A DNA stretch of 64,000 nt from Nitrospirota bacterium (GCA_039715075.1 JBDLIC010000005.1:202-64201); one strand, 5' to 3'. Counted from the first letter of the stretch, positions 34,138-51,568 are shown. Program-made: numbers and translations. The notes: generated by a model not told the origin, from the letters alone.

Positions 34138-34169
34138 AAATACAGGACTTTGAGGTCACTTTACCTCAG

Positions 34170-34209
34170 GGACCGGGTCAAAAACACCTGATTGTTTTTG
34201 CCCCGGTCC
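34170..34209. other. intra-operon 17-bp hairpin
   Basis: GGACCGGGTCAAAAACA-CCTGAT-TGTTTTTGCCCCGGTCC, 16/17 matched. Confidence 0.6.
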
Positions 34210-34583: not shown

Positions 34584-34865
34584 TGATCTCTTTTACCTTC
34601 TGGTTAGATTAGTAATAAACATTCTTATCCCGATAGTTAGTACATTAATTCTATAAACTAGTCTATCATATTCACCACCTAAGGGCGAGAAATTTGTATA
34701 AGAACTGTGAGGGAAATAAGAGGGCCGCAGCACCGGGCTGCTTTCTTATCTGTTTTTTCAATGGGTCCTTTTCGTTCTGTGTGATTTGAATTACAGTTTT
34801 TCTGACAAATTGGTAATACAATGAAAGTAAGCATGGAAAATAAATGGGAAATCAATGGAGGCTAA

Positions 34866-35252: not shown

Positions 35253-35369
35253 TTTTCCGCAAAAATACTGAAAACCCGGCTGTTTGAACTGCTCCTCACA
35301 AAACTAATATATATTCAGTGAATTACATTTGTGTTTACATTTTAAGACAAAATCTGCTTTTTTCTTAAT

Positions 35370-35398
35370 TAGACAATTTACAGGTATGTACTTATAAT
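35370..35398 (+). promoter_or_regulatory. sigma70 promoter of FKBP gene
   Basis: TAGACA-N17-TATAAT. Confidence 0.6.
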
Positions 35399-35441
35399 AC
35401 ATTTTTACTAAACAGAACCTATTGAAAAGAATGGAGGATAA

Positions 35442-36128
35442 ATGAGATTAATTGCAGTTGTATTTGGGGTGTTGTTTTTAGCAGGGACCATTTATGCTGA
35501 AGGAGATTCAGTTTTAAAGACTGAACGGGACAGGGTCAGCTATACTATCGGCCTGGATATCGGGAACAACCTGAAGGGCCAATCAATAGATGTTGATCCC
35601 GATATTTTTTCCAGGGGAGTAAAGGATGCGCTTACCGGGAGTAATCCGATGTTAACAGAGAAGGAAATCCAGGAAACAATGGCGAACTTCAAGAAGGAAA
35701 TGCAGATAAAACAGGCAACCCGCATGAAGGAGCTGGGAGAAAAGAAAAAGAAAGAAGGAGAGGCCTTTCTGACAAAGAATGGGAAGAAGAAAGGGGTAAC
35801 TACTCTGAAGAGCGGACTGCAATATGAGGTCATTAAAGAGGGCAACGGCAAGACTCCTGAATCCGCAGATACGGTTTCTGTACATTACCGCGGTACTCTG
35901 ATTGACGGGAATGAATTTGACAGTTCCTTTAAACGTGGCCAGCCTGCATCATTCCAGGTTGGAGGAGTGATTAAGGGGTGGACCGAGGCCCTGCAGCTTA
36001 TGAAGACAGGAGCAAAGTGGAAGCTTTTTATCCCTTCTGACCTTGCATATGGAGAGCGGGGAGCAGGCAGGAGTATAGGTCCTAATGAAACGCTGATTTT
36101 TGAAGTGGAGCTTCTTGCAATAAAATAA
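35442..36128 (+). CDS. FKBP-type peptidyl-prolyl isomerase (FkpA/Mip family), exported
   Basis: signal peptide, SYTIG, SGLQY, VHYRGTL, FDSS, VIKGWTEAL, LAYG. Confidence 0.95.
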   Translation: MRLIAVVFGVLFLAGTIYAEGDSVLKTERDRVSYTIGLDIGNNLKGQSIDVDPDIFSRGVKDALTGSNPMLTEKEIQETMANFKKEMQIKQATRMKELGEKKKKEGEAFLTKNGKKKGVTTLKSGLQYEVIKEGNGKTPESADTVSVHYRGTLIDGNEFDSSFKRGQPASFQVGGVIKGWTEALQLMKTGAKWKLFIPSDLAYGERGAGRSIGPNETLIFEVELLAIK

Positions 36129-36816
36129 GAATGTAAGGCCATAACTGTAGATTACCCGGGCAGGCTACGTCTGCCCGAAGCTCAAACAAGCAACAAATTA
36201 TATCTTCCTGGAAAATATCCCTGCTTATTGTAGGAGCCCCCTGATATACTGCCTATATTTGTTATAACAATGGAATATTAAGACAGGTAGAAATCTGCGA
36301 TAAATAACTTGATCTTAAATGCCCAAAGAAAGAATCGAGAAACTGTAAAAAGTAATTACAGTAAAGTAGGCGTTTAGGTAACCATCTGACAAATCCCCTG
36401 ATCTGCTTATTGACTTTAACGAGATTTAACAGGATGTCACGGGAGACTGCAATCGGAGAGAAGCTCCTACTGAAATATTTGAATATAAGCTGAAAAAATG
36501 AATGGTTGACCTTATTGTAGATTCATCGCTTGTTACAGGTGTCTTATTGTCTGATTTCAAAATTTATATGGCCCTAACCGTTGCTTAGTGTGTTGGATTT
36601 CAGATGCTGATATGGAGAGGGAAGTGTTAAGAAAGTTGACATATTCCCTTTTCTCCTCAAAAATTCATCCTTATCCCAAGAGTCAATGCTGCTGCCAAAT
36701 CAAATAGAAAAATAGAAATAGAAGATGAATTGTGTGAAAACGCTCACTATATGTGTTATTTAAAGCAACCAAATGGATCGTATGAATAAAAAGTCTTTAT
36801 TTTTAATGGCTTTAAG

Positions 36817-36833
36817 TTGGTATGCTATTTGCT
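36817..36833 (+). promoter_or_regulatory. candidate sigma54 promoter
   Basis: TTGGTATGCTATTTGCT = GG-N10-GC, about 90 bp upstream of the NHL gene after a long AT-rich intergenic region. Confidence 0.6.
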
Positions 36834-36922
36834 ATTTAAAATGCAGTTGAAAAGCAACCTGACAGTTTTGACTTTTAAATATTAGTAAATGAGTATATGT
36901 ATTTTGCTGTGTGAGGGAAAAA

Positions 36923-39169
36923 ATGAAACTAGCTAGAATTACACACATTTTTATCGTAACTCTGCTTACCTTGTCATTTTTTTTGTTCGCTTCCCCAAAC
37001 ATTCTCAATGCAGTTATGCCTCAACATGAGAAACTCAGTTCAATAACAGAAAATCTGTCAAAACCACAAAAAGTAGCGCTTGATAATAATGAAAATATTT
37101 TTGTTACTGTACCTAAAGACAATAAAATCCTGCTATATAATGCAATCGGTGAATACAAAAAGGCTTTCTTCGGTTTCCAGACACCGATCAGCATTGCTGT
37201 AGATAATACCAACAGAATATTTGTAGGAAATGAAGCATCAGGAAATGTTGTGGCTTATAGCTTGGATAATAATGGAGATCTTGTACAACTTTTTGAACTC
37301 GGAACTGGTGCCGGTGAGTTTTCCAAGCCGAGCTCTATAGCAATAGACGGTATCAGCGGAAATATTTATGTGGCAGATATGGTTGAGGATGTTGTTAAGA
37401 TTTATTCCAGTAGCGGTGTATCTTCTGGATCATTCGGGACTTCAGGCAGTGGAAACGGACAGTTCAATAAGCCGGTTTCTATTGCAATAGATGAAATTAT
37501 GGGTGAGATCATGGTTCTGGACCGTGGACTGGTCGTGGATATGTTCGGAGCTGAGTCTGAGGGAGCAGAGATTCAGGTTTTTAATATGAGTGGTGTATTT
37601 CAGAGAACCTTTGGAACGTACGGTTGGGATGAGGGACAGATGAAGAGACCTCAGGGCATAGAAATAGATGAATCGAGCAGAGTATATATTATTGACTCCT
37701 TATTTCAGTTTATTTATATTTTTGACAACAACGGCGTTTACGAAGGTAAAATTTCAGATGTTATTGAACCGATAAGATCTCCAATGGGTATTGTAATCGG
37801 CGGAAGTGAAAGAGTATTCATTACATCAATTACCCGTGATAAATATGACATATACAGAGTTTCAGACGCAGACAGTGCGTATATTGAAGCAAGTCCCAGG
37901 ACAGATGATTTTGCTATCGTTGATGTTAACAGTGTTTCAGCAGCCAGGACTGTGGAAGTGTTTAACCTGGGTAACCTGGGTTTCACATTAGGATCAAGCA
38001 CAATAACCGGAGCAGATGCATCTGACTTTTCTATTCAGAGCAGCAATTGTTCAGGTACTTTGGGTGCTTCATCAGCATGTACTATTAACGTGATATTTGC
38101 CCCTACAGTAATGGGTGCCAAGAATGCATCTCTTGAAATTCCAAACGATGCACCGAACGAAGGTACTATTGTTATCCCTTTAACAGGAACAGCCAATGAC
38201 CTTCCTGTTGCTGTTATAGGCGGTTCATCGTCCGGCGTAGAAGGGCAGGAGATAGTTTTTGGCGGCTCAGGATCAACAGATAGCGAAGGGAGTATTACCA
38301 GGTATGAGTGGGACGTTGATGGTGACGGTACATATGAATATGAGTCTGCTACGGCAACACAGAGCCATACTTATTCCGCTAATGCCTCCTATACAGTTGG
38401 GTTAAGGGTTACTGATGAGAATAATGCAACGAATGTAGAGACAACAATAATTGATATTTCCGATACTGCTCCGACAGCGGCTTTTTCAGCAGATACTACA
38501 ACTGGAGAAATACCGCTCACAGTTACTTTCTCTAATACCTCCTCCGGTTATGATGCACCTTTAACATATGAATGGGATTTTAATAATGACGGGACTGTTG
38601 ATTCTACCATTGAGAATCCGGTGATTAACTATGAAATTGAAGGAACCTATACAGTATCTCTGAAAGTCAGGGATTCAGATAATACTACACACACTGAGAC
38701 AAAAAATGATTTCATAATTGCCTTAACAGCAGATTCAGACGGTGATGGAATCATGGATGACGGTGATGGCAGCGGTACTGCAGGGGACAATACATGTACA
38801 GGGGGCAATACTGTGAACTGTGATGACAACTGTGTAAGTACTCCAAATGCTGACCAGGCTGACGCGGACAGTGACGGAGTTGGCGATATGTGTGAAAGTT
38901 GTGATCCTCCTGTGAAAATTGGGAGTAATTATTATTACTCAATTCAGTCCGCATATGATGCTGCGGCAGATGGAAGCACTATTCTCGTTCAGAGTGCGGT
39001 CTATATTGACGATATTGTTTTTGATGATGAAATAGGTCAAAAATCAGTTACCATAAGCGGCGGTTATGACTGTACCTATGAGAGCAGTGCCGGCATGAGT
39101 ACGTTGACTGGGATAAATATGTCAATAAACTTCGGAACAGTTTCCCTCGAAAACATTATTCTGGAATAG
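36923..39169 (+). CDS. secreted NHL beta-propeller protein with Ig-like (ASH), 2x PKD, thrombospondin type-3 and C-terminal domains
   Basis: signal peptide; NHL repeats (GEFSKPSSIAID, GQFNKPVSIAID, GQMKRPQGIEID); PKD YEWDVDGDG and YEWDFNNDG; DNCVSTPNADQADADSDGVGD; GAGGG RBS before ATG 36923. Confidence 0.9.
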   Translation: MKLARITHIFIVTLLTLSFFLFASPNILNAVMPQHEKLSSITENLSKPQKVALDNNENIFVTVPKDNKILLYNAIGEYKKAFFGFQTPISIAVDNTNRIFVGNEASGNVVAYSLDNNGDLVQLFELGTGAGEFSKPSSIAIDGISGNIYVADMVEDVVKIYSSSGVSSGSFGTSGSGNGQFNKPVSIAIDEIMGEIMVLDRGLVVDMFGAESEGAEIQVFNMSGVFQRTFGTYGWDEGQMKRPQGIEIDESSRVYIIDSLFQFIYIFDNNGVYEGKISDVIEPIRSPMGIVIGGSERVFITSITRDKYDIYRVSDADSAYIEASPRTDDFAIVDVNSVSAARTVEVFNLGNLGFTLGSSTITGADASDFSIQSSNCSGTLGASSACTINVIFAPTVMGAKNASLEIPNDAPNEGTIVIPLTGTANDLPVAVIGGSSSGVEGQEIVFGGSGSTDSEGSITRYEWDVDGDGTYEYESATATQSHTYSANASYTVGLRVTDENNATNVETTIIDISDTAPTAAFSADTTTGEIPLTVTFSNTSSGYDAPLTYEWDFNNDGTVDSTIENPVINYEIEGTYTVSLKVRDSDNTTHTETKNDFIIALTADSDGDGIMDDGDGSGTAGDNTCTGGNTVNCDDNCVSTPNADQADADSDGVGDMCESCDPPVKIGSNYYYSIQSAYDAAADGSTILVQSAVYIDDIVFDDEIGQKSVTISGGYDCTYESSAGMSTLTGINMSINFGTVSLENIILE

Positions 39170-39208
39170 CGATATACTGAAGACCTGTTGTAAATGTTTT
39201 GGTTGAAT

Positions 39209-39242
39209 AAAAGAGCGTGGATAATCTGCGCCTCTTTTTTTT
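39209..39242 (+). terminator. probable intrinsic terminator
   Basis: imperfect AAGAGCGTGGA/TCTGCGCCTCTT stem plus T tract. Confidence 0.5.
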
Positions 39243-39492
39243 ATTAATAAGAATGTTGTTGACAACATAAGCATACATCCTGCTTCACAGAAACCCCTCT
39301 ATATGGGGATAAGACAGATAATGTCATAGAAATCAGTGAACCAGGACATCTAAAAACAATACTTTAACAGGATTTTTAAGAACCAATTGATAGTGCAGAC
39401 ATTATTTTCTGTTGCTGCTTTTGAAAATAATTCTGTTAAGAGGTGATAACGGGTATTTAGTGAATTAAATGCATAAATAAGGGGAGTAATGA

Positions 39493-39552
39493 ATTTCAGG
39501 AAAACCCTATTTTGTTATTAACTTTATCCTTAGTCGATTTCAGGAAAACCCT
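39493..39552 (+). promoter_or_regulatory. 16-bp perfect direct repeat upstream of cytochrome gene
   Basis: ATTTCAGGAAAACCCT at 39493-39508 and 39537-39552 (44-bp period). Confidence 0.6.
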
Positions 39553-39657
39553 TATTTAGAAAGATATCAGAAATACGATATAGTATAAAAGCATACCTTA
39601 TTTAATGATTCTAATAAATAAAGCAGACTTTTTTACCTGAGCATTAGAATATTAGCC

Positions 39658-42600
39658 ATGACCAAAATAACAGCAATTAGAATATTTATCTTATCTTTCC
39701 TGTTTTGCCTGATTGCTGTTCAGGCCGACACTCTAGACTATCCGCATAACAGCGCTAACAATATAACATGTGAATCCTGCCATTTTGTCTATGGAGGCGA
39801 TGAAGTTCTTTTAATACTTCCTGAGTGGGTAAACCATGTTCCGGAGACAATTGATGACACGCAGTTTAATACACTCTGCTGGAGCTGCCATACCGAAACA
39901 CTGAGCGGCCCTCTATTTATGGAGACGCATTCCAGCCGTGTACTGGACAATGGCTACGGAGACTGGGCAGTGGAATGCAGGGTCTGCCACAATCCCCACA
40001 AGCAGCAGTTCAGGTCTGCCAATCATGGGAGTGAAGCATATATTCTGCAGGGGACGGTAGCGGGTGTCGGCACTGACACACTGACTGCAAGCGGAGTAAA
40101 CTGGGGCACAGATGAATATGCGGGATATGTAGTAGTGCCCAACATAGCGGAGAACAAGTATAACTATCAAGTATTAAGTAATGACAGCGATACGCTGACG
40201 GTAAAGGGAACAATAGACCAGTCAAGGGTAATAGCGACCGACACATTCGGCATATCCTACGGGAAGCTGGTCTATGACACAATACATCTGGACAAAATAA
40301 TAGACGATACCTCCGGCGGCCCGCCTGTAACGAGGACCGGTACGAAAACAGTAAAGTTTTTTAATAATGAAGGTGCGAATTCCTTTGCAGACGGAGATCT
40401 GACACTGGACGGGATATGTGAAGCGTGCCATCAGCAGACGAACCATTTCAGGAACTATAACCCCGTTACCGGAGAGTCGCTGTATGACAGGCTTCATGCA
40501 AACATGAACTATCCGGCAGGAACTGACTGCACGTTCTGTCATAAGCATGAGAACGGATTCATAGGTATGGGAGACGGGGCCCACACAACGCATGTGATTG
40601 ATGATAACGGGCCGAAACTCTGGTGCGGTGACTGCCATGGAGAAAACACACCGCCTGTGCTGGCAGACGGACTGGACCTGGCAAGTACGACTGTATGTGA
40701 TAATTGTCATTCATCAGACGGAATAGCAGATGCAAAAACCAACTGGCATGAAGACCCGGGCACATGGGTATCAACAGCCGGAGAGGAAAGCTTCTGCGGG
40801 AGCTGTCATGACCTGACACCCGGAAACAGCCGTCAGGAAGGCACAGGTTTTAATGCGCCAGGTGTGGCAGGGGATAAGACAAACTATGGTTTTTTTGAGA
40901 CAGGGCATGGAAGGCCGACAGCATCGGGCAACTTTGAAAATCTCTCGTGGCAGGAGACGACAGCCGGAAACGGAAATCCCGCGGCAAACAGGAGCTGCAG
41001 TGATTGTCATGACCTGACAAGCCAGCATTTTAATAAATCTATGATCAAAAGTGTCTACGGGACAGCTGGAGGCAATCAGCTGACAATAACCTTCAGAGGA
41101 CCTGTTTATACAGAGTCGACACCTTCAGGAAATCTTGTTGACACTGATTTCGATTATGTTGATGCCAGTGGTGACGGTGCCGCATCGATTGTCTCTGTTC
41201 TGCACTCAGCCGGAAGTTCTACTGCTGTCATAACATTAAATGCTAATTTGATCGCAAATGACATAGGCAATGATACGCTTGCTGCAAATAGCGATGAAGT
41301 ATTTGACGGATTGGGTGATCCATCTGATACAGGCTCATTAACAGTATCAGATATAGATGTGCCTTCGATGAGACTGAGGTCCGGTTTTGAAAACGATGCA
41401 AACAACAGCAACTGCCGGCAGTGTCATTATTCGGGCGGCCTGGCCTATAACGGTCCCGAGTGGTATACGTCATATACGGGCTATTCCTCTTCAGCCCATG
41501 GGACGGCAATTGGCAGCCTGAAATGCACTGACTGCCATGATGTGCATGGCGCTGCGGCGGGACAGTCTGCCTCAGTTCAATATCCCGGAATGACAACGGC
41601 CAATCAGGAGACATTATGTTATCAGTGTCATAAAGACCAGGCATCAGGCGGTATTCAGAACTTTGCGGTTACCGGGTTCAGGGGTACACATGATGGTGCT
41701 GATGATCAGCTCACAGTGCTTACAGACAGCACGGCAAAATATGCCGGAATACTTATAAATGTTCTGTCGGGCTGGACTGTGTATAACCTTACCGACGGCA
41801 GCAAAGGAACAATTACTGACCATAATCTGACACAGATAACAACTTCCGGTTTTCTGTCCGGTGGAATTGAGAATGACTGGGATAATGGAGATGCATACCA
41901 TATTGCCATGATTGATGACATTCAGCAGGCATTTAATTTATCAAGCAGTCATAACCTCGGTACAGGATTTGATTTAGGAAGCAATAATTATACACTTGAG
42001 TGTGTATCCTGTCACAATGTGCATCTTGTAACAGGCAAGCACTGGGACGCTGATCAGGGCAAGAGCCCTGTAACGAGGTTTGCCAGCAACCTCGATGTAT
42101 GGGGTGACGAGTCCGGAGAAAAGATGCAGGACTTTGCCTTCGGTACTGCAAACGGATATTATCAGCCCCCGGAGGGAGATCATTTTACAGGAACGGAACT
42201 GCCCGACTATGTCACGTTCTGTACTGATTGCCACAGTCAGCTGGTGCTTGGTGTGGTCGGACAGGACGGAACAGGCCATGGTATTAACTGGGGACAGGCC
42301 GGTATATTTGGCCCTTATGTGATTACAGATAAACACGGCCTTCCTTTGTCCGGTCAATCAGCGGCAGGTGGATGTCCGGACACATACTATTGTGACAAGA
42401 CCAATAACTACCCGAGAACAACATACAATGGATGGCCTTCTTCACCTCCCTGGCCCATGTATATGGCAGGCCGCGGGCGTGCGAACTGGACACTTATGCC
42501 CTATGATACGGCTGAAAGGTTTGCCGGAGTTAAAAATTATGTATTGAGCTGTACCGACTGTCACGAGGCCCACGGTTCAGCAACGGTCAGGCGGATGGGA

Positions 42601-45600
42601 AGGGCAATAACGAATGGCGCTACTGCCTCGATAAATGTCATGGGAAATTTCTGCTCGAATTGCCACTTTATGAACGGCGGGCACCATAATATACCACAGG
42701 GCGGCTGCGGCAACGGCGGCTGTCACGGCTCATGGTCACCCACAACAAATGACTCACTCCATAATATGAACCATGATTCTGGAAGTCCCGGGGCGGGTGC
42801 GTTATACAACTATGATTTAGTGCTGGATATGAGGTTTGAAAACAATTTAAATGACTCAGGCGCATGGAACCAGCACGGTCAGTGGGCGGCAGACGGCGAT
42901 GGCGCCGGTGCGTTTTCAGCCAGTCATGACGGCGGAGGAAATGCTTTGCTTATAGAGACGCAGCCCTATACAAATCCGGGCACCGGAAATCCGACCTCCG
43001 GCATAGGCGCTTTTGTTGAGCCCGGTTCAACGAATGGGGGATGGTCAACGGACGGCACTCACAGAGCGGACAGGTTCTTCTCATTCAAATACAGTCTGTC
43101 CTTTGAGTCCTGGATCTATCCAACAGATTACCCTGCATTGGATAATGGGGACGGAGTAACCAATCCTACACCTAACCGTTTTATTATTTCAAAGGCTACA
43201 TACGGGAATTATGCTGACTACGCCATGCTGCTGAGATATATTGATAGTGATTACAGACTGTATTTTCGTGGAAATGTGAACGCTAATGCTAATGGAGCAT
43301 CAGACGATTACGGATGGAGAGGGGCATACAGCTCTGTCGCAATACCTCTTAATCAATGGACACATGTTGCTGTGACCTATGACGCTTCCGAGCTGACAGA
43401 AGATCATGATGCAAATGACCTTGCAAAAGGCAGGATAAGGATTTATGTAAATGGCGAAGATGTCACAACAAACCAGGTGCCGAGCACAAACAACTATGAC
43501 CGCACCCAGCCCCTTGACGGTGAAGGTGAGGGTGCAAACCCTGACACGGGAAATGGGCTTAATCCGTGCATAGATAACGGTCAGTGCCAGTGGAGAATGG
43601 TGATAGGTTCTCTTCCATATGATAAGACGCTTGTCCATTTCATTGGGAAGATAGATGATGTAAAGATGTGGAATGTTACAAAGGATGCGAATTATTTTGA
43701 TGTCCAGGTGCCGCCATTGATAACATTGGTGGAGGGAATAAGCGGAAATGATAAATTATATGTGACATTCTCTGAATCTGTTTATGGTTCAGGTGTTTCA
43801 AATGAGCTGATAACTACTGATTTTGTTCTCAATGATGTAAGCGGCAACGGGGCGCTTGGTATCTCGACTGTGTCCCATACAGCGGGAGATACAACGGCTG
43901 TTCTGACACTGAGCGGCAACCTGGCAATCGAGGATATAGACACTGATACACTTGAGCCGGCTGCAAGTTCCATCTATGACGAATACGGAAGTATTGCAGC
44001 CTTTACAGATGGCTTGGCAATAATTGCGAAAGTTAATGCCCCTACGCTTGATATGGTAAATGGTACGGATGGTCATAACAGGATTGTTATAAGATTTTCC
44101 GAATCCATATACACAAATTCTAATGGTACAGGAACCCTTCAGCCCACTGATTTTGCATACTCAGATGTAAGCGGAAACAGTATTACATCGGTAGAGCATA
44201 CACTGGACAGACTTGAGGCAACACTTGTGCTTGATGGTGATGTAAATGCCGTTGATATAGATGCAGCCACGCTTACTCCTTTAGCGGGAGCTGTTTTTGA
44301 TGTCACAGGCTATCCTGTAAATATAACTCCTGTGACCCTGACACAAGGCCTTGTTTCTTCTATTTCAGCGATTGAGGGTGTTGAAAACAGTAATGTGCTT
44401 AAGGTGACTTTTGAGAGCCAGGTTTACTCGGCTGTTAATGAGACAGGTTCACTGGATGCTTCGGATTTCGTATACGTCGATACTAATGGAGAACATACCA
44501 GTCAGTTTATTTCATCTGTCACCCACTCTGGGGGCAGCCCGGTTGCCATCATTACGATGAACGAAAATATGATCCCGGCCGACTTTGGTGCGGACACACT
44601 TGCAGCGGTCGCTGATTCCATCTTTGGTCCGGGTGATGTCAGTTTTCCTCTGGATGCTGCTGACACTGTGACAATAACGGCACAGACAGCTCCAACGCTT
44701 ACAAGAGTTGAAGGCGCAGATGGTTACGACAAGTTATTTGTAGCATTTAGTGAGGGTGTATATACAGGTGCCGGACAAGCCGGTGCCCTTACAACGGCCG
44801 ACTTTGTTGACAGTGACGCTGTGTGGGACATAAGCGGGGTGCAGCACATCGCGGGGCAGGCAAATGCAATACTTACCCTGACTGCTGCTCTCGATGCAGG
44901 TGACATCGGGACCGAAACAATTGACGTAGCCGGTAGTACATCAGTATATAACAATACCGACAACCCGGTTGCAACAGGATCTGCTGTCACTATAGCTGGA
45001 TACGACTGTCCAACATGGGGAAGCACCTTTGACTTTAATGATGGCACAGGAAGTTCTACTGTGACGGACGATACAACTTTGCTTGAAGGCACTGTAGGTA
45101 ACCCCTTGGTCAGCATGTTGGGTGATAATTTATACACCGGTGATGAAACCGAGGCAGAAGCCACCTATATTGATATAAACAGCGGTGCCAATTATGACAA
45201 ATGCCTCCAGACAGGCAGGGCATACACTATTGAGACGAGGTTCTACGCAGGTGATGTGGATATGGACTATGTGGATGTTGACCCGGTAAACGGTCTTGAT
45301 GATGACTATGATGTTTATAACACTCCAAATGACCAGGATGGAGACGGGAGAACAGGTACATACAGCAGGATTATGGAGAGACAGAATTCATACTTCGTGA
45401 CCCTGATGAGAGCGGGATATGCAGGGGACTATATGTCAAAAAGGGCGGGGAAGGCCAGGATTGAGTTTAAATACCGCAGGGACGATGCATCACTTCACAC
45501 CTGTCCGCATCCTCAATGGCCTGAGGACCAGACATACACCGGTGACAGCTCCGGGCAGCACCAGATCAGCTCCGATATTGGTCAATGGCCGATTATTGAT

Positions 45601-45957
45601 AATCACTGGTACCGGATAAGGGTCGTCTTCAACTCTGACAAAATAAATATAGCTGGATCGAACGGCAATCCTGTAGATATCTTTTTTGATGACCAGGGTG
45701 AGACAGGACTTGATGATGCCACAGAACAATGGTCAGGATTGATTAACGTATCAAAGGCCATTAATGACAGTTCATCCTGCAGATGGGGCGCCCTCCCCGG
45801 AGACTATATGCGAATAATCGACAGGTTTACCTACATTGGCGACAACTCTGTTCATACGGATATCCCGAACGACGTCTGGAATTTAATGCTCAAAGGGAAG
45901 CTGGACTGGCTGAGCTGGAAGCCCTATGCGGATTATACTGGAGTAACACCTAAATGA
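39658..45957 (+). CDS. giant secreted multiheme c-type cytochrome (16 CXXCH + 1 CX4CH) with Ig-like repeats and LamG-like domains
   Basis: Sec signal; heme motifs counted by eye from CESCH (39769) to CGNGGCH (42726); LamG motifs WTHVAVTYD, IYVNG, FIGKIDDVKMW; five about 100-aa repeats. Confidence 0.93.
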   Translation: MTKITAIRIFILSFLFCLIAVQADTLDYPHNSANNITCESCHFVYGGDEVLLILPEWVNHVPETIDDTQFNTLCWSCHTETLSGPLFMETHSSRVLDNGYGDWAVECRVCHNPHKQQFRSANHGSEAYILQGTVAGVGTDTLTASGVNWGTDEYAGYVVVPNIAENKYNYQVLSNDSDTLTVKGTIDQSRVIATDTFGISYGKLVYDTIHLDKIIDDTSGGPPVTRTGTKTVKFFNNEGANSFADGDLTLDGICEACHQQTNHFRNYNPVTGESLYDRLHANMNYPAGTDCTFCHKHENGFIGMGDGAHTTHVIDDNGPKLWCGDCHGENTPPVLADGLDLASTTVCDNCHSSDGIADAKTNWHEDPGTWVSTAGEESFCGSCHDLTPGNSRQEGTGFNAPGVAGDKTNYGFFETGHGRPTASGNFENLSWQETTAGNGNPAANRSCSDCHDLTSQHFNKSMIKSVYGTAGGNQLTITFRGPVYTESTPSGNLVDTDFDYVDASGDGAASIVSVLHSAGSSTAVITLNANLIANDIGNDTLAANSDEVFDGLGDPSDTGSLTVSDIDVPSMRLRSGFENDANNSNCRQCHYSGGLAYNGPEWYTSYTGYSSSAHGTAIGSLKCTDCHDVHGAAAGQSASVQYPGMTTANQETLCYQCHKDQASGGIQNFAVTGFRGTHDGADDQLTVLTDSTAKYAGILINVLSGWTVYNLTDGSKGTITDHNLTQITTSGFLSGGIENDWDNGDAYHIAMIDDIQQAFNLSSSHNLGTGFDLGSNNYTLECVSCHNVHLVTGKHWDADQGKSPVTRFASNLDVWGDESGEKMQDFAFGTANGYYQPPEGDHFTGTELPDYVTFCTDCHSQLVLGVVGQDGTGHGINWGQAGIFGPYVITDKHGLPLSGQSAAGGCPDTYYCDKTNNYPRTTYNGWPSSPPWPMYMAGRGRANWTLMPYDTAERFAGVKNYVLSCTDCHEAHGSATVRRMGRAITNGATASINVMGNFCSNCHFMNGGHHNIPQGGCGNGGCHGSWSPTTNDSLHNMNHDSGSPGAGALYNYDLVLDMRFENNLNDSGAWNQHGQWAADGDGAGAFSASHDGGGNALLIETQPYTNPGTGNPTSGIGAFVEPGSTNGGWSTDGTHRADRFFSFKYSLSFESWIYPTDYPALDNGDGVTNPTPNRFIISKATYGNYADYAMLLRYIDSDYRLYFRGNVNANANGASDDYGWRGAYSSVAIPLNQWTHVAVTYDASELTEDHDANDLAKGRIRIYVNGEDVTTNQVPSTNNYDRTQPLDGEGEGANPDTGNGLNPCIDNGQCQWRMVIGSLPYDKTLVHFIGKIDDVKMWNVTKDANYFDVQVPPLITLVEGISGNDKLYVTFSESVYGSGVSNELITTDFVLNDVSGNGALGISTVSHTAGDTTAVLTLSGNLAIEDIDTDTLEPAASSIYDEYGSIAAFTDGLAIIAKVNAPTLDMVNGTDGHNRIVIRFSESIYTNSNGTGTLQPTDFAYSDVSGNSITSVEHTLDRLEATLVLDGDVNAVDIDAATLTPLAGAVFDVTGYPVNITPVTLTQGLVSSISAIEGVENSNVLKVTFESQVYSAVNETGSLDASDFVYVDTNGEHTSQFISSVTHSGGSPVAIITMNENMIPADFGADTLAAVADSIFGPGDVSFPLDAADTVTITAQTAPTLTRVEGADGYDKLFVAFSEGVYTGAGQAGALTTADFVDSDAVWDISGVQHIAGQANAILTLTAALDAGDIGTETIDVAGSTSVYNNTDNPVATGSAVTIAGYDCPTWGSTFDFNDGTGSSTVTDDTTLLEGTVGNPLVSMLGDNLYTGDETEAEATYIDINSGANYDKCLQTGRAYTIETRFYAGDVDMDYVDVDPVNGLDDDYDVYNTPNDQDGDGRTGTYSRIMERQNSYFVTLMRAGYAGDYMSKRAGKARIEFKYRRDDASLHTCPHPQWPEDQTYTGDSSGQHQISSDIGQWPIIDNHWYRIRVVFNSDKINIAGSNGNPVDIFFDDQGETGLDDATEQWSGLINVSKAINDSSSCRWGALPGDYMRIIDRFTYIGDNSVHTDIPNDVWNLMLKGKLDWLSWKPYADYTGVTPK

Positions 45958-46000
45958 TGAAATACAGTTTATAACAGGTTTTTAACTGTCATAAATTACT

Positions 46001-46033
46001 AAATCGGTCTATTTTAACAGACCGATTTTTTTT
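46001..46033 (+). terminator. intrinsic terminator after cytochrome gene
   Basis: AAATCGGTCT-N8-AGACCGATTT plus T run. Confidence 0.8.
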
Positions 46034-46191
46034 GCTGAACCACTGTAATGTATCCTGATCTTCTTCATTTGCTGCTTTAACTATAAAGTTTAAAGAACCG
46101 CATTTTTGTTGCCGTATTGTGTGAAAAAACCTCAAAACATTAAAACAAGGTTTACTATAACTGGTAACCCTCTCTCTTTATTAAGTTTTTA

Positions 46192-46326
46192 ATACCCTGC
46201 AGTCTCTGCTGTGGGGTTTCCTCTTAATCCCCACTTTGGAAAAGGGGGGCGAGGGGGGATTTTTTAAATTAATATTTTTTTTTACCTAACGATACCCCGC
46301 TGTCTCTGCGGCGGGGAGTCTTCATT
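46192..46326. repeat. cluster of short palindromic repeats
   Basis: two ATACCC(C/T)GC..TCTCTGC..(T/C)GGGG copies (46192-46216, 46292-46316) flanking a CCCACTTT/AAAGGGGG element (46228-46262). Confidence 0.65.
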
Positions 46327-46418
46327 ATTTTCTGGTAGCATTGAGGAATTGACGAATCAATAGCAGGAGCAATGACAGTCCAGCGACCTATCTCTGGAAT
46401 CAGGTGATTGCGGTTTCC

Positions 46419-46631
46419 TTACTTTTTTGTTACCTGACACCGCTCCTCGGGCACCCCGAGTTTTTTGAGAATTAAACCCATAGGGCAAACCTTTGAGAAT
46501 CCAAACTGAAAAAGGTTTGCGCCGACAAATGCGGTAAAGAGATACCACCACGGACTTACCCATGTTCCAAGGGCAAGGCTCCCGAGAATAAAGATTCCTG
46601 CTATTACATGTATCCAGTCATTAACAGACAT
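46419..46631 (-). CDS. DUF2892 (YgaP-like) membrane protein
   Basis: IAG.F.L.SL.L, FVGANLFQ, CPM..ILKKLG. Confidence 0.88.
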   Translation of the reverse strand: MSVNDWIHVIAGIFILGSLALGTWVSPWWYLFTAFVGANLFQFGFSKVCPMGLILKKLGVPEERCQVTKK

Positions 46632-46723
46632 ATTTTGTCTCCTTTTTATCTTTATATGTTTAAAGTAACATTTATGTTTATATTTTTTGTGAAGAGAATT
46701 TTAGAATAAATATTTTAGTCAAT

Positions 46724-48007
46724 TTAAAAACTGTAACGTGTCCCTGCATAGGCGTTGGTATTGTCTTCAAACTGGCCGAAAAACGTATGGTCATTGTTTC
46801 CATAAAAAATATTGCCTCCGGCTTCGACCGCCCATCTGTCAGACACCTTGTAGTGTGCCTTTGGGCGGAAATATGCGTCCTCATCCGAAGGGGAATAATA
46901 AGTAAAGAGAGACAGTCTCAGGTTCTGGTTCATCATCAATTTAGTCAGCCTGAGTGTCAGGAGATGCCGGTACTCATCCTTCTGTGCTGACCCTGGAGGC
47001 AGGGATGATTCGTATTCAGAGTAATCCATCATCCATTCGAGGTAATACTGTATACCCCCGGTAAGGTCCCGGCCGAGTTCTCTTTCATACCCTCCCATGA
47101 AACGGACCTCGCTGTTGCGGATAAAGGGATCGTTCCCTGTGCTGTCCTGATATGAATCATAATAACCTGTTTCGATATTTCCAATCCCGCCCAGGACAGG
47201 AGCCCGTAGACTTCCGCCCACAGAGCGGAGCCGTGGGTATATCCCTTTGCCGGTGCCCCGGTCTATTCCCTCCGGTGTCTGCCAGAATCCGTCATATCCG
47301 TACAGCGCTGTCTCTATACCGTTTAATGTCTTTGACAGGCGCAGTGATATTTCATCGTCACTAAAAAAAGTGTTCCGTTCATGGTCATTAAATATGCTCT
47401 CCTCCCCTGTAATCCTGGTTTCGTTCCAGTATGACAGCCGTGACCCGTCAATATACACAGACCCGTTGAAAACAGGACTGTAGGAAATATCCATGTTAAC
47501 AAGATCAAAATACAGGCTTGCCCGCAGACTGTCTGAAGGCGCTTTCAGGTATTCATTGTCGCGTCCGATGAAAAAGGATTCCCAGTCCTTTGGGAAAAGG
47601 TCGTTGATGAAGAGCAGGTCGCCCGTGCCCCATGTCTGGATCTGACGGCCAGCTTTGACGTCCATGTAATCAACCGGAGAAAATGAAAAATTCAGCTCCC
47701 GAAGTTCACCCCGTACTTCTTCAAGGACCCTGTCCCCGACCAGATCACCTTTGAATTTGCCGGTTCCCCATTTAAATTCCTTTGACAGATCGAGCTGAGT
47801 GCGGACTTCAGATATGGACTCATCTTTTTCAAACCGGTCATTCTGCAGACGCCATCCCTGCCGCGCTTCTGCAAAACCGAACAGCTCGGTCTCATACCGG
47901 TCATAAAGCCAGTCCCTGATTTCCGAAGCTGATGCATTATAGATTAAAGTCAGTAAGAGCGTTACAAGTACGGATGCTGTGAGAATAATTTTATTAATAA
48001 ATTTCAT
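46724..48007 (-). CDS. outer-membrane beta-barrel protein (DUF1302-like)
   Basis: signal peptide, ELRE, KAGRQIQTWG, FFGQF, C-terminal YSF; operon context. Confidence 0.75.
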   Translation of the reverse strand: MKFINKIILTASVLVTLLLTLIYNASASEIRDWLYDRYETELFGFAEARQGWRLQNDRFEKDESISEVRTQLDLSKEFKWGTGKFKGDLVGDRVLEEVRGELRELNFSFSPVDYMDVKAGRQIQTWGTGDLLFINDLFPKDWESFFIGRDNEYLKAPSDSLRASLYFDLVNMDISYSPVFNGSVYIDGSRLSYWNETRITGEESIFNDHERNTFFSDDEISLRLSKTLNGIETALYGYDGFWQTPEGIDRGTGKGIYPRLRSVGGSLRAPVLGGIGNIETGYYDSYQDSTGNDPFIRNSEVRFMGGYERELGRDLTGGIQYYLEWMMDYSEYESSLPPGSAQKDEYRHLLTLRLTKLMMNQNLRLSLFTYYSPSDEDAYFRPKAHYKVSDRWAVEAGGNIFYGNNDHTFFGQFEDNTNAYAGTRYSF

Positions 48008-48023
48008 CCTGTAATAGATTATT

Positions 48024-48165
48024 TAGAGTCTCTGTATAAACTCAATGTCTCTGTCCGTCATTCCCGAAGTTCTTAATCGGGAATCCAGTCTTTTCAGCAA
48101 GTTCTGGATGCCCGATTACTGACTTCGGGCATGACAAAAAAACGGCAGTTTATACACAGACTCTA
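48024..48165. mobile_element. MITE-like element with 19-bp TIRs (TA ends) enclosing a GTCATTCCCG...CGGGCATGAC palindrome
   Basis: TAGAGTCTCTGTATAAACT (48024-48042) vs reverse complement of AGTTTATACACAGACTCTA (48147-48165), 18/19. Confidence 0.8.
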
Positions 48166-48960
48166 TTTACGGGCTTCTTTCGGGGCCCTGCGCAAATACC
48201 TTTCGGTAAATATATCACTCAAACCTATATCATATCTGACATCTGTGAAAACAGATACTGTATTGCCTCCGTTCAGAAGATCCTGTACCCGCGATTTGAT
48301 CACAGTAGGGTGTCCCTGAATGTCTTTTATTTCAAGAGATTCAACCGTCCGGTACATACGGCCCTCCCTGTCGGTATATTCTGCTTTTCTGGGCAGGAAG
48401 GACCTGCGGTCAATCCAGATCTTGTAGGAGGAGAATTCAACACTGGAAGGGTCTTTTGGTACGCTGTTGAGGATGAAAAATTCATCATTCGCGTCCAGCA
48501 GGAGATGTTTGTCCTCAAAGATTGAACGGCCCGAAACATCTTCATATAGAAAGTGAGAGCCTACAAAGCTCGTGCGCTTGTCAGCGGCAGCGATCCTTTT
48601 GACAAGGTCCAGGGCCGGCAGATAAAGCCACCTGTCATCATCAGCCCCGATCTTTTTGTGGACCATGAACACCATTTTGCGCACGTCACCCGGTTTTCTG
48701 AAGTAGACGTAAAACTTCTGCTCTCCGCCTTCGCTGACATCTTTTCTCAGGATAATGAACTCCCTTTTCCTGACCCGGCCCTGTGCATCGGTAATCGTCA
48801 TGGATACCTTTGCCGTTCCGTCATTGCCTGCGTAATATGCGGCCTTATTTGCACGATCGACTATTTCATCTACTCCCGGAATTTCTTCGGCAGACTCAGC
48901 AGGTGTACATAAAACTGTTATTAGTATTAAGAACACATTTAATATGGATAGCTTTTTCAT
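48163..48960 (-). CDS. outer-membrane lipoprotein-sorting (LolA-like) protein
   Basis: signal peptide; F.KP.DV, DDRWLYLPALDLVKRI, SFVGSHFLYED. Confidence 0.88.
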   Translation of the reverse strand: MKKLSILNVFLILITVLCTPAESAEEIPGVDEIVDRANKAAYYAGNDGTAKVSMTITDAQGRVRKREFIILRKDVSEGGEQKFYVYFRKPGDVRKMVFMVHKKIGADDDRWLYLPALDLVKRIAAADKRTSFVGSHFLYEDVSGRSIFEDKHLLLDANDEFFILNSVPKDPSSVEFSSYKIWIDRRSFLPRKAEYTDREGRMYRTVESLEIKDIQGHPTVIKSRVQDLLNGGNTVSVFTDVRYDIGLSDIFTERYLRRAPKEARK

Positions 48961-48964
48961 TACG

Positions 48965-51568
48965 TTACTCCTTTTTCAATTTTCTGAACAGCTGTCTTTC
49001 CATTATCTTTATCAGGGACGGAAGAATATACATTGTCGCCATTCCGGATATGGCCATGATGCTTGCCAGGAAAATACCGACCGTATTGTAGGGTACCAGC
49101 GATGCTGCCAGAAGAGGTGTGAAACCGATGGCAATAACTATGACATTTCTTGTAATGGCCCTTGCCGGTTCCTCAAACATTTCAACGATTACCTTTTCCC
49201 ATGAACCATATTTTTTATAGAGCATCCGTGACCGTTCAAGAAAGTGGATGGCAAAATCAACGGCCAGTCCCAGGGTCAATGACGACAGCACAGCAACAGG
49301 CATGTCATAATCTTTTCCTGCAACCCCGATAATTCCATAAATAAGGGCAATAGTTACGGAAAGCGGTATCATTGCGAGAATTCCCCAGAATGGTGAACGG
49401 AACAGTATTGTCATCATTATAAATACAACAGCGAAGCTGCTCAGGAATGATTTGAGCATACCCCAAACCATCTTGTCCTGCCAGACAATATTCAGATATG
49501 TGAGGCCTGCCCAGTCTGCCTTCAGAGGCACAGGCGCCGGGTTCTTATCAAGGTACTTGTCTATTGTCTGCACGACCCTTTCCATGTCCCTGTTGTCACC
49601 GCTTTTTAACTGCAGCCATATATTGGCTTTTTTATAATCAGGTGTGACAAGATGCCATAAATCGTCAGGTTTGTGGCTGTTCTGAAAAGATATAAGAGTC
49701 TGGGCCACAGCCGGGACAGTTTCAGGAATTTTATAATTGCGCGGATCGCCTTCAAACAGTTCCTGATACACCTTTTTAACAAGATCGGCAACCGAATTGC
49801 TTTTACCGACAACATCAGAGTTAAGGAGATGTTCCTGAATGCCCGAAACGTATTCCAGTACATCCGGCCGCTTGAATATCTGGCCGCGGTTTTTCACTGC
49901 CTCAATCCGGTCAAGCGTATCTGCCCAGAAATCATAGGATGCATCATCTGCATTATCCAGCTTTTTATTCCAGCGGTCAATCAGCTGCTCCCAAAATTCC
50001 TCTATGCCTGATACACTGGAAGACGACCACTGAATGAGCGCAGCAGCCTGACCGTAAAGGTCGGGATTTTCTTTGGCTTCTATTCCCGCTTTTACCTCAT
50101 TGAGTACCAGCTCTGTGATGCCGGACAATGTCTCTTTTTTTGGCATCTCCTGCAGTATAAGATATGCCTCATACGTACCGCCGAAATGATGGTTCAGGAC
50201 TTTGTCCGCCAGACGTATAGGATGCGATTTTTTGAACCATTTGACCGGGTTGTCATTGATCTGAATTTTGTTAATGCCGTATATCGCTATAATGAGCGTT
50301 AAGGCTGTTACAGCAAGTACCAGTTTGGAACGTGCATGGGTGACATTGCCTACCCATTTGAGATGCCTTGATAATAGCGTTTCTTTTTCCCCGCCGCTAT
50401 GACCCAGGCCGGCCAGTTGTTTTTCGCTCAGCATCATTATATATGCTGGAATGAAGAGGATGGTGAGCAGCCAGGCAAGAATGATACCGAATGCCACAAA
50501 TATGCCGAAGACCCGGACCGGGGGAATGGGTGTCAGGGCAAGAGAGGCGAATCCCGCAGCCGATGTGAGTGAGGTATACATCATCGGCATAAACAGTTCT
50601 TCCATGACCCCCTCGATCGTCTTTCTGCGGTTGCTGGTCTGCCGGTAGGTATCAAAAAATTCGCTGAGAATATGTATGCCGTCCACCACGGCAATCGGCA
50701 TCAGAAATATCGGTATCATCGAACTCATGATATGAAGAGTGTTGCCTGTTACGATCAAGAGGCCCATTGTGCATATGACCGAAACCATGGCCACAATTAT
50801 GGGGGAAATAATAAGTCCCGGTTTCCTGAAAAAGATAAGCATAAGAATAAAAATGGCGAGCATGGCAAGCGGTGCGGACAGGGCCATCTGGACAAACATT
50901 TCCACACCGAATGTATCTTCTGCAACCGGAAGGCCTGTAATGTGATACTGATCATCAGAACTGCCTTCAAATGATCCGATTTTCTCAAGAAGTCTTTCGC
51001 GTACAAAATAGGCAAAGTCTTTTGAGGTAATCGGGATATAAATTCCCAGCGCCTTCCCGTCCTCTGAAACCAGCGTGCCCTTGAGGAGTGGATTGCTCAT
51101 GGCGTTGTCACGGACCTTTAATGCCTGTTCCCTGGTTTCCGGAGGCTGTTTCATAAGCCATTTGAAACGTATCTGTCCCGGACCTGCCTGCTCGATAATG
51201 TCTACATTACCGGGTGCCATAAGGTCACTTGTGACAACCTGCCATTCCGGTCTGTCCGGTTTCTGCAGTCCCCTGATGAATCCGGTCAGTTCGTGAACGC
51301 GCCCGAGGGTTTCAATATTAAATACACCGTCAGGATGAGTTTCATTAACAACTCCGAGAATGACCACATCATGCAGATTGAAGTCTTTCTTCGCCTGATC
51401 GTGAAATACTCGTACCGGCTCATGGTCAGCCAGCATATTTTCCGGATCAGTATCAACCTGTACAAGGCTGATCATTGCACCGAGCATGATTGTGATCACA
51501 ACCATTACAATTGTGATGGTCCCGGGTCTGTTGATGGAATATTGGACTATGTTGCCTGCAAGTTTCAT
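48965..51568 (-). CDS. MMPL/RND-family transporter
   Basis: two TM bundles with large periplasmic domains; IAVVDGIH, TSLTSAAGF, GLAVDFAIH. Confidence 0.92.
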   Translation of the reverse strand: MKLAGNIVQYSINRPGTITIVMVVITIMLGAMISLVQVDTDPENMLADHEPVRVFHDQAKKDFNLHDVVILGVVNETHPDGVFNIETLGRVHELTGFIRGLQKPDRPEWQVVTSDLMAPGNVDIIEQAGPGQIRFKWLMKQPPETREQALKVRDNAMSNPLLKGTLVSEDGKALGIYIPITSKDFAYFVRERLLEKIGSFEGSSDDQYHITGLPVAEDTFGVEMFVQMALSAPLAMLAIFILMLIFFRKPGLIISPIIVAMVSVICTMGLLIVTGNTLHIMSSMIPIFLMPIAVVDGIHILSEFFDTYRQTSNRRKTIEGVMEELFMPMMYTSLTSAAGFASLALTPIPPVRVFGIFVAFGIILAWLLTILFIPAYIMMLSEKQLAGLGHSGGEKETLLSRHLKWVGNVTHARSKLVLAVTALTLIIAIYGINKIQINDNPVKWFKKSHPIRLADKVLNHHFGGTYEAYLILQEMPKKETLSGITELVLNEVKAGIEAKENPDLYGQAAALIQWSSSSVSGIEEFWEQLIDRWNKKLDNADDASYDFWADTLDRIEAVKNRGQIFKRPDVLEYVSGIQEHLLNSDVVGKSNSVADLVKKVYQELFEGDPRNYKIPETVPAVAQTLISFQNSHKPDDLWHLVTPDYKKANIWLQLKSGDNRDMERVVQTIDKYLDKNPAPVPLKADWAGLTYLNIVWQDKMVWGMLKSFLSSFAVVFIMMTILFRSPFWGILAMIPLSVTIALIYGIIGVAGKDYDMPVAVLSSLTLGLAVDFAIHFLERSRMLYKKYGSWEKVIVEMFEEPARAITRNVIVIAIGFTPLLAASLVPYNTVGIFLASIMAISGMATMYILPSLIKIMERQLFRKLKKE

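Follow-up and report, generated by a model that had tools for sequence, protein, structure and literature searches.

The stretch of DNA analyzed here (the window) comprises 64,000 nucleotides (nt) of a Nitrospirota bacterium (GCA_039715075.1 JBDLIC010000005.1:202-64201), and its positions 39658..45957 on the plus strand hold a gene for a 2099-amino-acid (aa) protein rich in heme-binding motifs. The gene is one intact open reading frame with an ATG start and is the sole long frame at the locus; no competing frame on either strand within these limits exceeds 162 aa. A preliminary description of the sequence had outlined a modular multiheme cytochrome with a signal peptide and no lipobox, 16 CXXCH motifs plus one CX4CH in the first ~1020 aa, one immunoglobulin (Ig)-like copy between hemes 9 and 10, a LamG-like domain ahead of four tandem Ig-like copies and a second, Asp-rich LamG-like domain at the end, and it knew of no characterized protein of this build. 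Each of these elements was found again by the analyses given below, and the coordinates proved accurate (Table 1). A Kyte–Doolittle scan (>1.6 over 19 aa) returned aa 1–27 as the only hydrophobic segment of the protein. By manual reading of the sequence, not by a predictor program, we placed the predicted cleavage of a Sec-type signal peptide after Ala23, at an Ala-X-Ala-like site before Asp24, which is followed by a DYPH motif conserved in homologs; the residues preceding Cys17 are Phe-Leu-Phe, a context unlike a lipobox. The whole protein is strongly acidic.

Table 1. Features of the cytochrome gene and its surroundings, in window coordinates
Feature	Position	Strand	Basis
FKBP peptidyl-prolyl isomerase gene	35442-36128		Pfam; 0.8 kb farther upstream
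752-aa exported NHL beta-propeller / choice-of-anchor-D / 2x PKD / Asp-rich repeat protein	36911..39169	+	Pfam, NCBIfam; N-terminal hydrophobic signal in translation
Terminator-like hairpin and T-run after the NHL/PKD gene	39215..39231	+	Pattern scan, consensus match only
Weak sigma-70-like promoter match, 74 nt 5' of the start codon	39555..39584	+	9/12 positions; tentative
Sec-type signal peptide (predicted), aa 1-23	39658..39726	+	Sole hydrophobic segment; homologs with equivalent N-terminus
N heme cassette, hemes 1-9, aa 24-458	39727..41031	+	Motifs; conserved >=90% in 47 homologs
Insert 1, between hemes 3 and 4	40000..40407	+	Small beta-barrel, confident core aa 124-200, pLDDT 83-96
Ig-like domain between the N and C heme cassettes, aa 459-572	41032..41373	+	Homologous to the four tail repeats
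C heme cassette, hemes 10-17, aa 573-1040	41374..42777	+	Motifs; conserved >=88%; Pfam matches aa 580-666
Insert 2, between hemes 12 and 13	41638..41994	+	Small beta-barrel, core aa 670-755, pLDDT 80-88
LamG/ConA-like domain 1, aa 1041-1349	42778..43704	+	Pfam PF13385 (Laminin_G_3)
Four tandem Ig-like repeats, ~107 aa each, aa 1350-1784	43705..45009	+	Pairwise E 1e-17 to 5e-9
C-terminal Asp-rich ConA/LamG-type jelly roll, aa 1785-2099	45010..45954	+	AlphaFold2, VIA-align, Foldseek and ESM Atlas
Strong two-way hairpin terminator, 44 nt past the stop codon	46001..46028	.	10-12-bp stem then T-run, both strands

A motif script located the 16 CXXCH motifs at aa 38, 74, 107, 254, 291, 323, 347, 380, 447, 586, 623, 654, 782, 855, 965 and 999 and the single CX4CH at aa 1017–1023, with all 17 motifs lying within aa 38–1023; neither CX3CH nor any variant longer than CX4CH occurs in the 2099 aa. 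From the composition of the protein (43 Cys and 65 His) only ~0.03 CXXCH motifs would be expected by chance, and 34 of the 36 Cys between aa 24 and 1040 belong to heme motifs. Several Pfam profiles exceeded their cut-offs in the heme region, namely PF14522 (Cytochrome_C7) with 48.5 bits (cut-off 24.8), PF14537 with 37.4 bits (cut-off 25) and PF09699 (Paired_CXXCH_1) with 32.8 bits (cut-off 20.6). The profile of MtrC/MtrF domain II/IV (PF22113) scored 43.8 bits against a cut-off of 30, a match confined to aa 580–666 and to profile positions 78–171 of 176. By its motifs and these cut-offs the predicted protein classifies as a multiheme c-type cytochrome of c3/c7 type. No NCBIfam model passed its cut-off for the 2099-aa protein, and sequence and profile searches of the PDB gave only weak local matches to heme motifs (9yuq_N, E 3e-4; 7tfs_A, which is OmcE, E 0.016) and no solved relative. 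ESM Atlas returned no usable match for the heme region.

We observed that the heme region is broken at three places by non-heme domains, of which the preliminary description had listed only the Ig-like one; the other two are small beta-barrels at ~aa 124–200 and ~aa 670–755. Their cores are modeled with confidence, as judged by the predicted local distance difference test (pLDDT; Table 1). In VIA-align, insert 1 resembled beta-barrels from tail-tip and baseplate proteins of phages (Z 8.2–9.5) and insert 2 the C-terminal domain of a phage tailspike (Z 8.5); as these scores are middling, we draw only the fold class from them. Insert 1 has no Pfam match. For counts of domains we used a family alignment of 69 rows, comprising the query and 68 homologs (P0024 and P0071–P0075 were left out), and regarded a feature as present if at least 60% of the query columns were covered. 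On this basis insert 1 occurs in 49 of the 68 homologs and insert 2 in 8. The insert-2 domain (~75 aa), which no Pfam model covers, recurs, at times in multiple copies, in giant non-heme proteins from metagenome-assembled genomes (MAGs) labeled Dehalococcoidia, Gemmatimonadota and Eisenbacteria (L005:4545-16208, L006, L007 and L008:1867-8037).

The third insert is the Ig-like copy at the junction of the two cassettes. Compared by BLASTP, the junction copy (aa 461–576) matched each of the tandem copies of the tail (aa 1350–1787) with E values from 1e-18 to 3e-12 and 36–43% identity, and none of the 68 aligned homologs carries an Ig copy between its heme blocks. The sequences most similar to it are Ig repeats in the tails of other members of the family, and since none of the Ig repeats compared exceeds 48% identity, we reject the idea that a tail Ig was recently copied into the junction. 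A repeat-driven misassembly is likewise ruled out, since the longest DNA repeat in the gene measures 33 nt at 64–76% identity and a Logan contig bridges the insert. This 16-kb contig, from run X1, spans 39658–43203 including the junction Ig with 0 differences; run X1 is probably the source sample, so the contig is not independent evidence. We noticed that in one short relative (P0080, a record of only 481 aa) the N cassette likewise leads on to an Ig-like stretch, with 72% identity by HMMER and 61% over the BLASTP alignment.

Behind the last heme the protein continues for roughly half of its length with a tail of surface-type folds. Pfam Laminin_G_3 matched aa 1145–1286 above its cut-off of 27.6 bits, with 39 bits in the whole protein and 46 bits for the piece alone. 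For the Ig-like repeats Big_5 stayed below its cut-off (repeat 1 was best, E=0.05 and 14.8 bits against 23.6), and the other four Ig-like copies had no Pfam match at all. An AlphaFold2 model of aa 1676–2099, built from a 33-row alignment, was confident (pLDDT 85.8; predicted template modeling score, pTM, 0.87). Its first ~105 residues, which are Ig repeat 4, superimposed on the Ig domain of the S-layer protein SbsC (2ra1) with Z 11.4 and a root mean square deviation (rmsd) of 2.2 Å over 92 aa at 18% identity, and similarly on 4uj6. The five copies therefore classify as Ig-like beta-sandwiches resembling SbsC, repeat 4 by its predicted model and the others by homology to repeat 4. Each of the five copies has a His at the same position (e.g. 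aa 1407 in repeat 1, window ~43876), which is at least 90% conserved in the 69-row alignment and invariant in the 33-row alignment; its role could be structural, metal-binding or heme-contacting.

The C-terminal 315 aa, for which Pfam gave no family at E≤10, consist of 13% Asp and include a disordered Asp-rich loop (aa 1871–1895). The best VIA-align match of this domain was the sugar-binding domain 4 of the GH43 arabinanase AbnA (Z 15.6, rmsd 3.0 Å, 183 aa), followed by the jelly rolls of CBM40, pentraxins, LamG and the clostridial neurotoxin HCN with Z 12–15, while the LG domains of laminin, agrin and neurexin scored Z 10.6–11.2. Foldseek agreed on a jelly roll of ConA/LamG type, and the nearest clusters in ESM Atlas were Laminin_G_3 with a score of 0.97.

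We read the gene as encoding an extracellular electron-transfer cytochrome that would anchor itself through its lectin-like modules, and we give this reading somewhat better than an even chance. Exported by Sec and not lipidated, the c-type cytochrome with its ~17 hemes would most likely work beyond the cytoplasmic membrane, on the surface of the cell or within the matrix around it. Its electron-carrying part would be the two densely packed cassettes of hemes 1–9 and 10–17, and the heme-free tail (LamG, four SbsC-like Ig domains and the ConA-like jelly roll) would tie it to a glycan or polymer, making it ‘self-anchoring’. What the tail holds on to could be the envelope or exopolysaccharide of the producing cell, but also another cell acting as partner or a mineral with a coating. 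The tail folds support this reading, as SbsC-like Ig domains and sugar-binding jelly rolls are typical of surface proteins, and a surface setting is also supported by the occurrence of insert 2 and of tail modules in giant non-heme proteins of surface type. What the analyses establish is the reading frame, its motifs, the folds of the tail domains, the family with its modular build and the conserved NHL neighbor; that the hemes are loaded and held by bis-His ligation, that the protein lies outside the cell and binds glycans, which way electrons flow and to which partner, we infer. The term ‘secreted conductive adhesin’ used in the preliminary description would fit in so far as domain types, neighbors and relatives point to an extracellular location. 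We doubt the arrangement sketched there, in which an Ig stalk holds the heme wire away from the cell: such a stalk does not conduct, and without further cytochromes to bridge the distance the hemes would be cut off electrically from the cell. We consider it more likely that the geometry is reversed, with the heme domain near the redox network of cell or matrix and the lectin arm pointing outward or anchoring, or that the protein is embedded in a cytochrome-rich matrix.

Among 5.8 billion proteins searched, 74 besides the query matched at E≤1e-3 (75 rows in all), and the architecture is recurrent rather than a one-off. Most of these matches share the heme core together with the LamG, Ig and C-terminal domains. 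Judged by sequence, the protein is a member of an uncharacterized family whose ~1400–2100-aa members come from MAGs of Nitrospirota and of several further phyla. Hemes 10–12 and hemes 13–17 are each present in 67 of the 68 aligned homologs, the first LamG domain in 45 and the C-terminal jelly roll in 55; at least one Ig domain occurs in 67, one in 50 and four in 14. The closest full-length relative (P0002) shows 54–55% identity, and one member of its cluster is labeled as coming from a gammaproteobacterial Sedimenticola MAG. With the heme region as query, HMMER returned 1141 of 1.84 billion representatives (of 50%-identity clusters) at E≤1e-3, 537 at 1e-10 and 224 at 1e-30. These matches form two blocks, query ~2–437 and ~547/727–1015, in proteins of 175 to 3956 aa, which indicates that the heme region consists of two independently reused cassettes. 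Many proteins have the N cassette by itself or combined with different tails (query 2–437; aa 5–310), aa 750–1003 of the C cassette recur in 430–500-aa proteins with 7–8 hemes, and tail modules are also found without hemes (P0024, P0146). For the related cytochromes of 430–700 aa, no named NCBIfam model passed its cut-off save the generic doubled-CXXCH domain, and PDB held no solved relative.

The same pattern was seen in genomes and metagenomes. A locus search with the single protein gave 4 loci, all via the insert-2 domain, and the alignment was used as query for the rest. Among 40 related genomes only G015 (two loci) and G036 matched across both heme cassettes, and in many others only the N-terminal ~300 aa were found, joined to other proteins. 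Marine metagenome runs X2–X4 of a second study contained only nt 39658 to ~40460 (the first 700–800 nt), at 90–95% identity and high depth, followed by unlike sequence. The divergence after ~40460 indicates a relative that shares the N-terminal heme module and has another continuation, which fits cassette shuffling in nature. The whole gene was found only in the probable source sample, a marine metagenome. The host genome itself (G000) holds two paralogs of the N module, a 388-aa five-heme protein matching aa 3–301 (G000:C2:7563-8726) and a 1191-aa frame with 20 CXXCH and 5 CX4CH motifs matching aa 8–337 (G000:C35:3810-7382). Another combination of heme and surface modules lies in a Nitrospirae MAG (L011:14516-22723), where a 2042-aa protein with N-terminal paired CXXCH motifs, a right-handed beta-helix and Big_5 comes after the family member, and a beta-helix/Big_5 protein after that.

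The family ranges over Nitrospirota, Thermodesulfobacteriota, Myxococcota, Planctomycetota and archaea-labeled bins, and members or cassettes were seen in MAGs labeled Phycisphaerae, Myxococcales, Gammaproteobacteria, Coriobacteriales (L012), Methanosarcinales (L015) and Candidatus (Ca.) Syntrophoarchaeum; the relative from the Ca. Syntrophoarchaeum bin has 16 hemes and a hydrophobic C-terminal anchor. One alternative reading of the protein would be a cell-to-cell conduit for interspecies electron transfer, in which the C-terminal lectin-like domain recognizes a glycan of the partner and the cassettes exchange electrons with partner cytochromes. It would suit the occurrence of the family or its cassettes both in Methanosarcinales- and Ca. 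Syntrophoarchaeum-labeled bins and in lineages of sulfate-reducer type, the crossing of phyla implied by the Sedimenticola-labeled closest relative and the marine origin of the sample. Nothing links the host organism to consortia, however, and the distribution could reflect no more than a shared habitat and gene transfer among bins whose labels are unverified, so that we hold a conduit to be very unlikely. For a self-anchoring cytochrome at the surface, the relatives in bins labeled as archaea and monoderms carry weight in a different way, as in such cells the surface is the only extracytoplasmic place.

To what end the hemes serve was judged from conservation. In a 48-row alignment of the heme region (47 homologs) all 17 heme motifs are conserved to at least 88%, and 18 non-motif His and 2 Met are conserved as well, a number sufficient for a sixth ligand on all 17 hemes. 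That every heme could be so ligated argues for electron transfer over catalysis. Between hemes 14 and 15, 31 of the 63 homologs with the anchor motif have an additional Cys pair, mostly alongside a second one; this pairing and limited occurrence suggest disulfides rather than conserved active-site Cys. No conserved residue of catalytic type was found in the alignment of the heme region. A link to the pentaheme polysulfide reductase MccSep was rejected for want of a sequence relationship in the PDB searches and because of the limited spread of the Cys pair. The AlphaFold2 model of aa 24–1040 from the same alignment was poor (mean pLDDT 54, pTM 0.44), which is what one expects when a fold packed with hemes is modeled in the apo form, and we took no heme geometry from it. 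A VIA-align match of the heme region to MtrA (Z 6.0, rmsd 5.5 Å) arises from low-confidence parts and was set aside.

These data bear on the possibility that the protein is an extracellular or periplasmic redox enzyme, with one heme of the C cassette being catalytic and the LamG/ConA-like domains holding an insoluble or polymeric substrate such as sulfur or polysulfide, humics or a metal-oxide coating. The stretch of hemes 13–17 is the most conserved, contains the invariant non-heme residues P804, G894 and R982 and recurs as a module in the compact 7–8-heme proteins, while dsrAB in the host makes sulfur chemistry relevant; moreover, carbohydrate-binding-type modules are typically fused to enzymes, and the top fold match of the tail is the sugar-binding domain of an arabinanase. 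Against this stand the conserved His and Met residues that suffice for all 17 hemes, the lack of CXXCK, of a conserved lone Cys and of selenocysteine, the presence of the Cys pair in only about half of the homologs, and the at most weak local similarity to NrfA, NrfB and solved multiheme enzymes, with no NCBIfam enzyme family over its cut-off. We therefore consider an enzymatic role unlikely and continue to favor an electron-transfer cytochrome anchored outside the cell.

Directly upstream of the cytochrome gene lies a gene for an exported NHL-propeller/PKD protein, whose Asp-rich repeats look thrombospondin-type by eye. Among the five related loci with upstream DNA, an NHL-propeller gene stands directly upstream of the family member in three (L013, L014 and L018); three further loci begin at a contig edge and were left out of this count. 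In one homolog (P0014) NHL domains even form the N-terminus of the same polypeptide as the cytochrome. The NHL/PKD protein is thus a likely candidate partner of the cytochrome as judged by gene context, and in our reading it would be the probable docking partner. The conserved neighbor, the fusion in P0014 and the presence of NHL proteins in electron-transfer clusters of other bacteria (see below) support the favored reading. The hairpin after the NHL/PKD gene suggests a separate transcript for the cytochrome gene, and with terminator-like hairpins after both genes co-transcription is doubtful. The sigma-70-like match in between is to be read against a count of such sites in the region equal to the shuffle expectation. 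In the 766-nt gap 3' of the cytochrome gene we noticed a 37-nt GC-rich hairpin element in two copies 100 nt apart (window 46192–46328) that belongs to no Rfam family; Rfam gave no match anywhere in 34000–48500.

The host is a Thermodesulfovibrionia-like organism: the cysteinyl-tRNA synthetase (CysS) encoded in the window is 84–86% identical to proteins of Nitrospirota/Thermodesulfovibrionia MAGs. Its genome of 3.64 Mb, rated 100% complete, carries dsrAB and 64 frames with at least three CXXCH motifs, with up to 26 per frame. Frames with 26, 25, 22 and 20 CXXCH motifs, among others, lie on contigs C65, C120, C165, C35, C73 and C12, and adjacent cytochrome genes form clusters, e.g. at C65:941-7122 and C12:10921-20561. 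ResB of System II exceeded its cut-off at three places, which indicates that cytochrome c maturation is present, and four secretin genes were found. Both a dsrAB-carrying host of this kind with its 64 multi-CXXCH frames and the combination of a signal peptide, no other hydrophobic segment, three ResB-type genes and four secretins support an extracellular electron-transfer cytochrome.

The same export data would also suit a cytochrome confined to the periplasm, where it would store electrons or pass them on while its Ig and LamG modules bind peptidoglycan or periplasmic partners. A Sec signal and heme attachment alone suffice only for the periplasm, and neither a lipobox nor a known C-terminal sorting domain was found in the protein, nor an MtrB-type porin in the genome. 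The size of the protein (2099 aa) and its nine or more non-heme domains of the kind found in surface proteins speak against this, as does a partner-type protein with PKD and, by eye, thrombospondin-like Asp-rich repeats; relatives are labeled archaea and monoderms, and the four secretins are available for a type II-like export. We regard a purely periplasmic location as distinctly unlikely.

Several observations weigh against the self-anchoring extracellular cytochrome that we favor. No feature that would mark a route across the outer membrane was found, neither a lipobox nor a recognized C-terminal sorting signal nor a porin of MtrB/PioB type, PF11854 having no match in the host genome despite its completeness rating. 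LamG and Ig folds are no proof of glycan binding, and the heme-region model is too unreliable to lend support to one continuous heme chain or to any effect of the Ig spacer on the cassettes. In two of the five informative loci (L011 and L019) the family member has no NHL neighbor. The cytochrome gene looks monocistronic, with terminator-like sites on either side, so the tie to the NHL protein is one of conserved neighborhood. The taxonomic labels of the MAG bins may be wrong, and there was no RNA run among the sequencing runs listed as holding the gene.

Other genes in the window touch the cytochrome less directly. Downstream and convergent with it lies a row of three minus-strand genes (46724–51568) that looks like a separate unit; it encodes a 427-aa protein, a LolA-like protein and an MMPL/RND-type transporter with a sterol-sensing-type domain. 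The 427-aa protein has a signal peptide, a C-terminal Phe and no Pfam match and resembles an outer-membrane beta-barrel. Farther out are a PAS-domain protein fused to an RNase T-type exonuclease (32038–34137, minus strand), a small protein with two CW domains (52052–52378, plus strand) and a separate 351-aa cytochrome with five CXXCH motifs (60009–61064, minus strand). A 199-aa frame (57689–58288, plus strand) with an HsdM N-terminal domain and the first ~42 positions of N6_Mtase appears to be a shortened methylase gene of a type I restriction-modification system. The cysteinyl-tRNA synthetase (61973–63664, plus strand) carries a hexapeptide-repeat transferase domain at its N-terminus, and this fusion is matched over its full length in Nitrospirota and in many Bacillota/Clostridia genomes.

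Outside Shewanella and Geobacter it is largely unknown how extracellular cytochromes are held and aimed. A widespread family that fuses modules of sugar-binding type to a 17-heme core would provide a concrete and testable mechanism of anchoring, and with 224 clusters of the 50%-identity library matching the heme region at E≤1e-30 the family is sizeable. Its cassette structure, with stand-alone N cassettes, heme-free tails and divergent continuations, would show by which mode such proteins evolve. The cytochrome-rich, dsrAB-bearing genome is a candidate for extracellular electron transfer. We see the value of the finding in a target family with defined domain boundaries, its function being conjectural. 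The Ig spacer at the cassette junction is unique to this member among the aligned homologs; large extracellular-type multiheme cytochromes with surface modules are of a known kind. As a speculation that we consider improbable as a whole, the family could form an unrecognized class of self-anchoring extracellular cytochromes, in which two autonomous heme cassettes are recombined with lectin- and Ig-type modules and passed between phyla including archaea; in the present member the junction spacer would split the wire into a 9-heme and an 8-heme unit with different partners, and the choice of the glycan into which the wire plugs, be it of the own matrix or of a partner cell, would fall to the ConA-like domain at the C-terminus.

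Compared to known systems, the protein shares with MtrC, OmcA and MtrF of Shewanella that it is predicted to be an exported multiheme c-type cytochrome with non-heme beta-barrels interleaved with heme domains, and the PF22113 match falls into its C cassette. MtrC, OmcA and MtrF are lipoproteins of ~650–750 aa with 10 hemes that dock on the MtrAB porin complex. In contrast, our protein has no lipobox, 17 hemes, 2099 aa and a long LamG/Ig tail, and its genome has no MtrB. Given the missing lipobox and MtrB and a Pfam match that is local (~90 aa), the cytochrome is not a member of the MtrC/OmcA group. In Geobacter, OmcZ is held by the Xap exopolysaccharide, and the nanowire cytochromes OmcS, OmcE and OmcZ are small, with 4–8 hemes. 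The concept is alike, a multiheme cytochrome being positioned outside the cell via a polymer or by polymerization; there a separate polysaccharide network does the anchoring, whereas here the lectin-type domains are fused to the cytochrome itself, and the sequence similarity to OmcE (7tfs) in the profile search is negligible. Giant multiheme cytochromes of anaerobic methanotrophic archaea (ANME) and Methanoperedens are fused to S-layer-type domains. They resemble our protein in being very large and in combining many hemes with domains of surface-layer type, here an SbsC-like Ig fold, and relatives of our protein occur in Methanosarcinales-labeled bins; the heme cassettes and tail domains appear to differ.

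The gene neighborhood finds its counterpart in clusters of known or proposed extracellular electron transfer. NHL proteins recur in such clusters, namely Uet of Ca. Tenderia (Tenderiales preprint), a cluster of Desulfovibrio ferrophilus and one of Gallionella (Gallionellaceae paper). The Uet clusters of Ca. Tenderia and Gallionella and DFE_0451/DFE_0463 of D. ferrophilus show an exported NHL beta-propeller gene adjoining one or more genes of large multiheme cytochromes, as at our locus, and a peptidyl-prolyl isomerase lies nearby in both cases, UetB in the Uet cluster and the FKBP protein here. Unlike in Uet, a Pfam scan of the neighbors recognized no porin, triheme c7 or undecaheme UetJ-type gene beside the cytochrome; the cytochrome appears to belong to a different family and has an adhesin-type tail of its own. 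With respect to the tail, a parallel comes from the PSCyt (‘Planctomycete-specific’) domains of cytochrome c, which bind a single heme and have been discussed with carbohydrate metabolism. In Verrucomicrobia these are fused to Laminin_G_3 and other carbohydrate-binding modules (PMC5615132). Within the full texts covered by our literature search, which do not extend to most subscription journals or to supplements, no fusion of a multiheme cytochrome with LamG was described, and PSCyt was the only published combination of a cytochrome with Laminin_G_3 that we found. Unlike PSCyt, the protein described here joins its LamG-type modules to 17 heme motifs of c3/c7 type.

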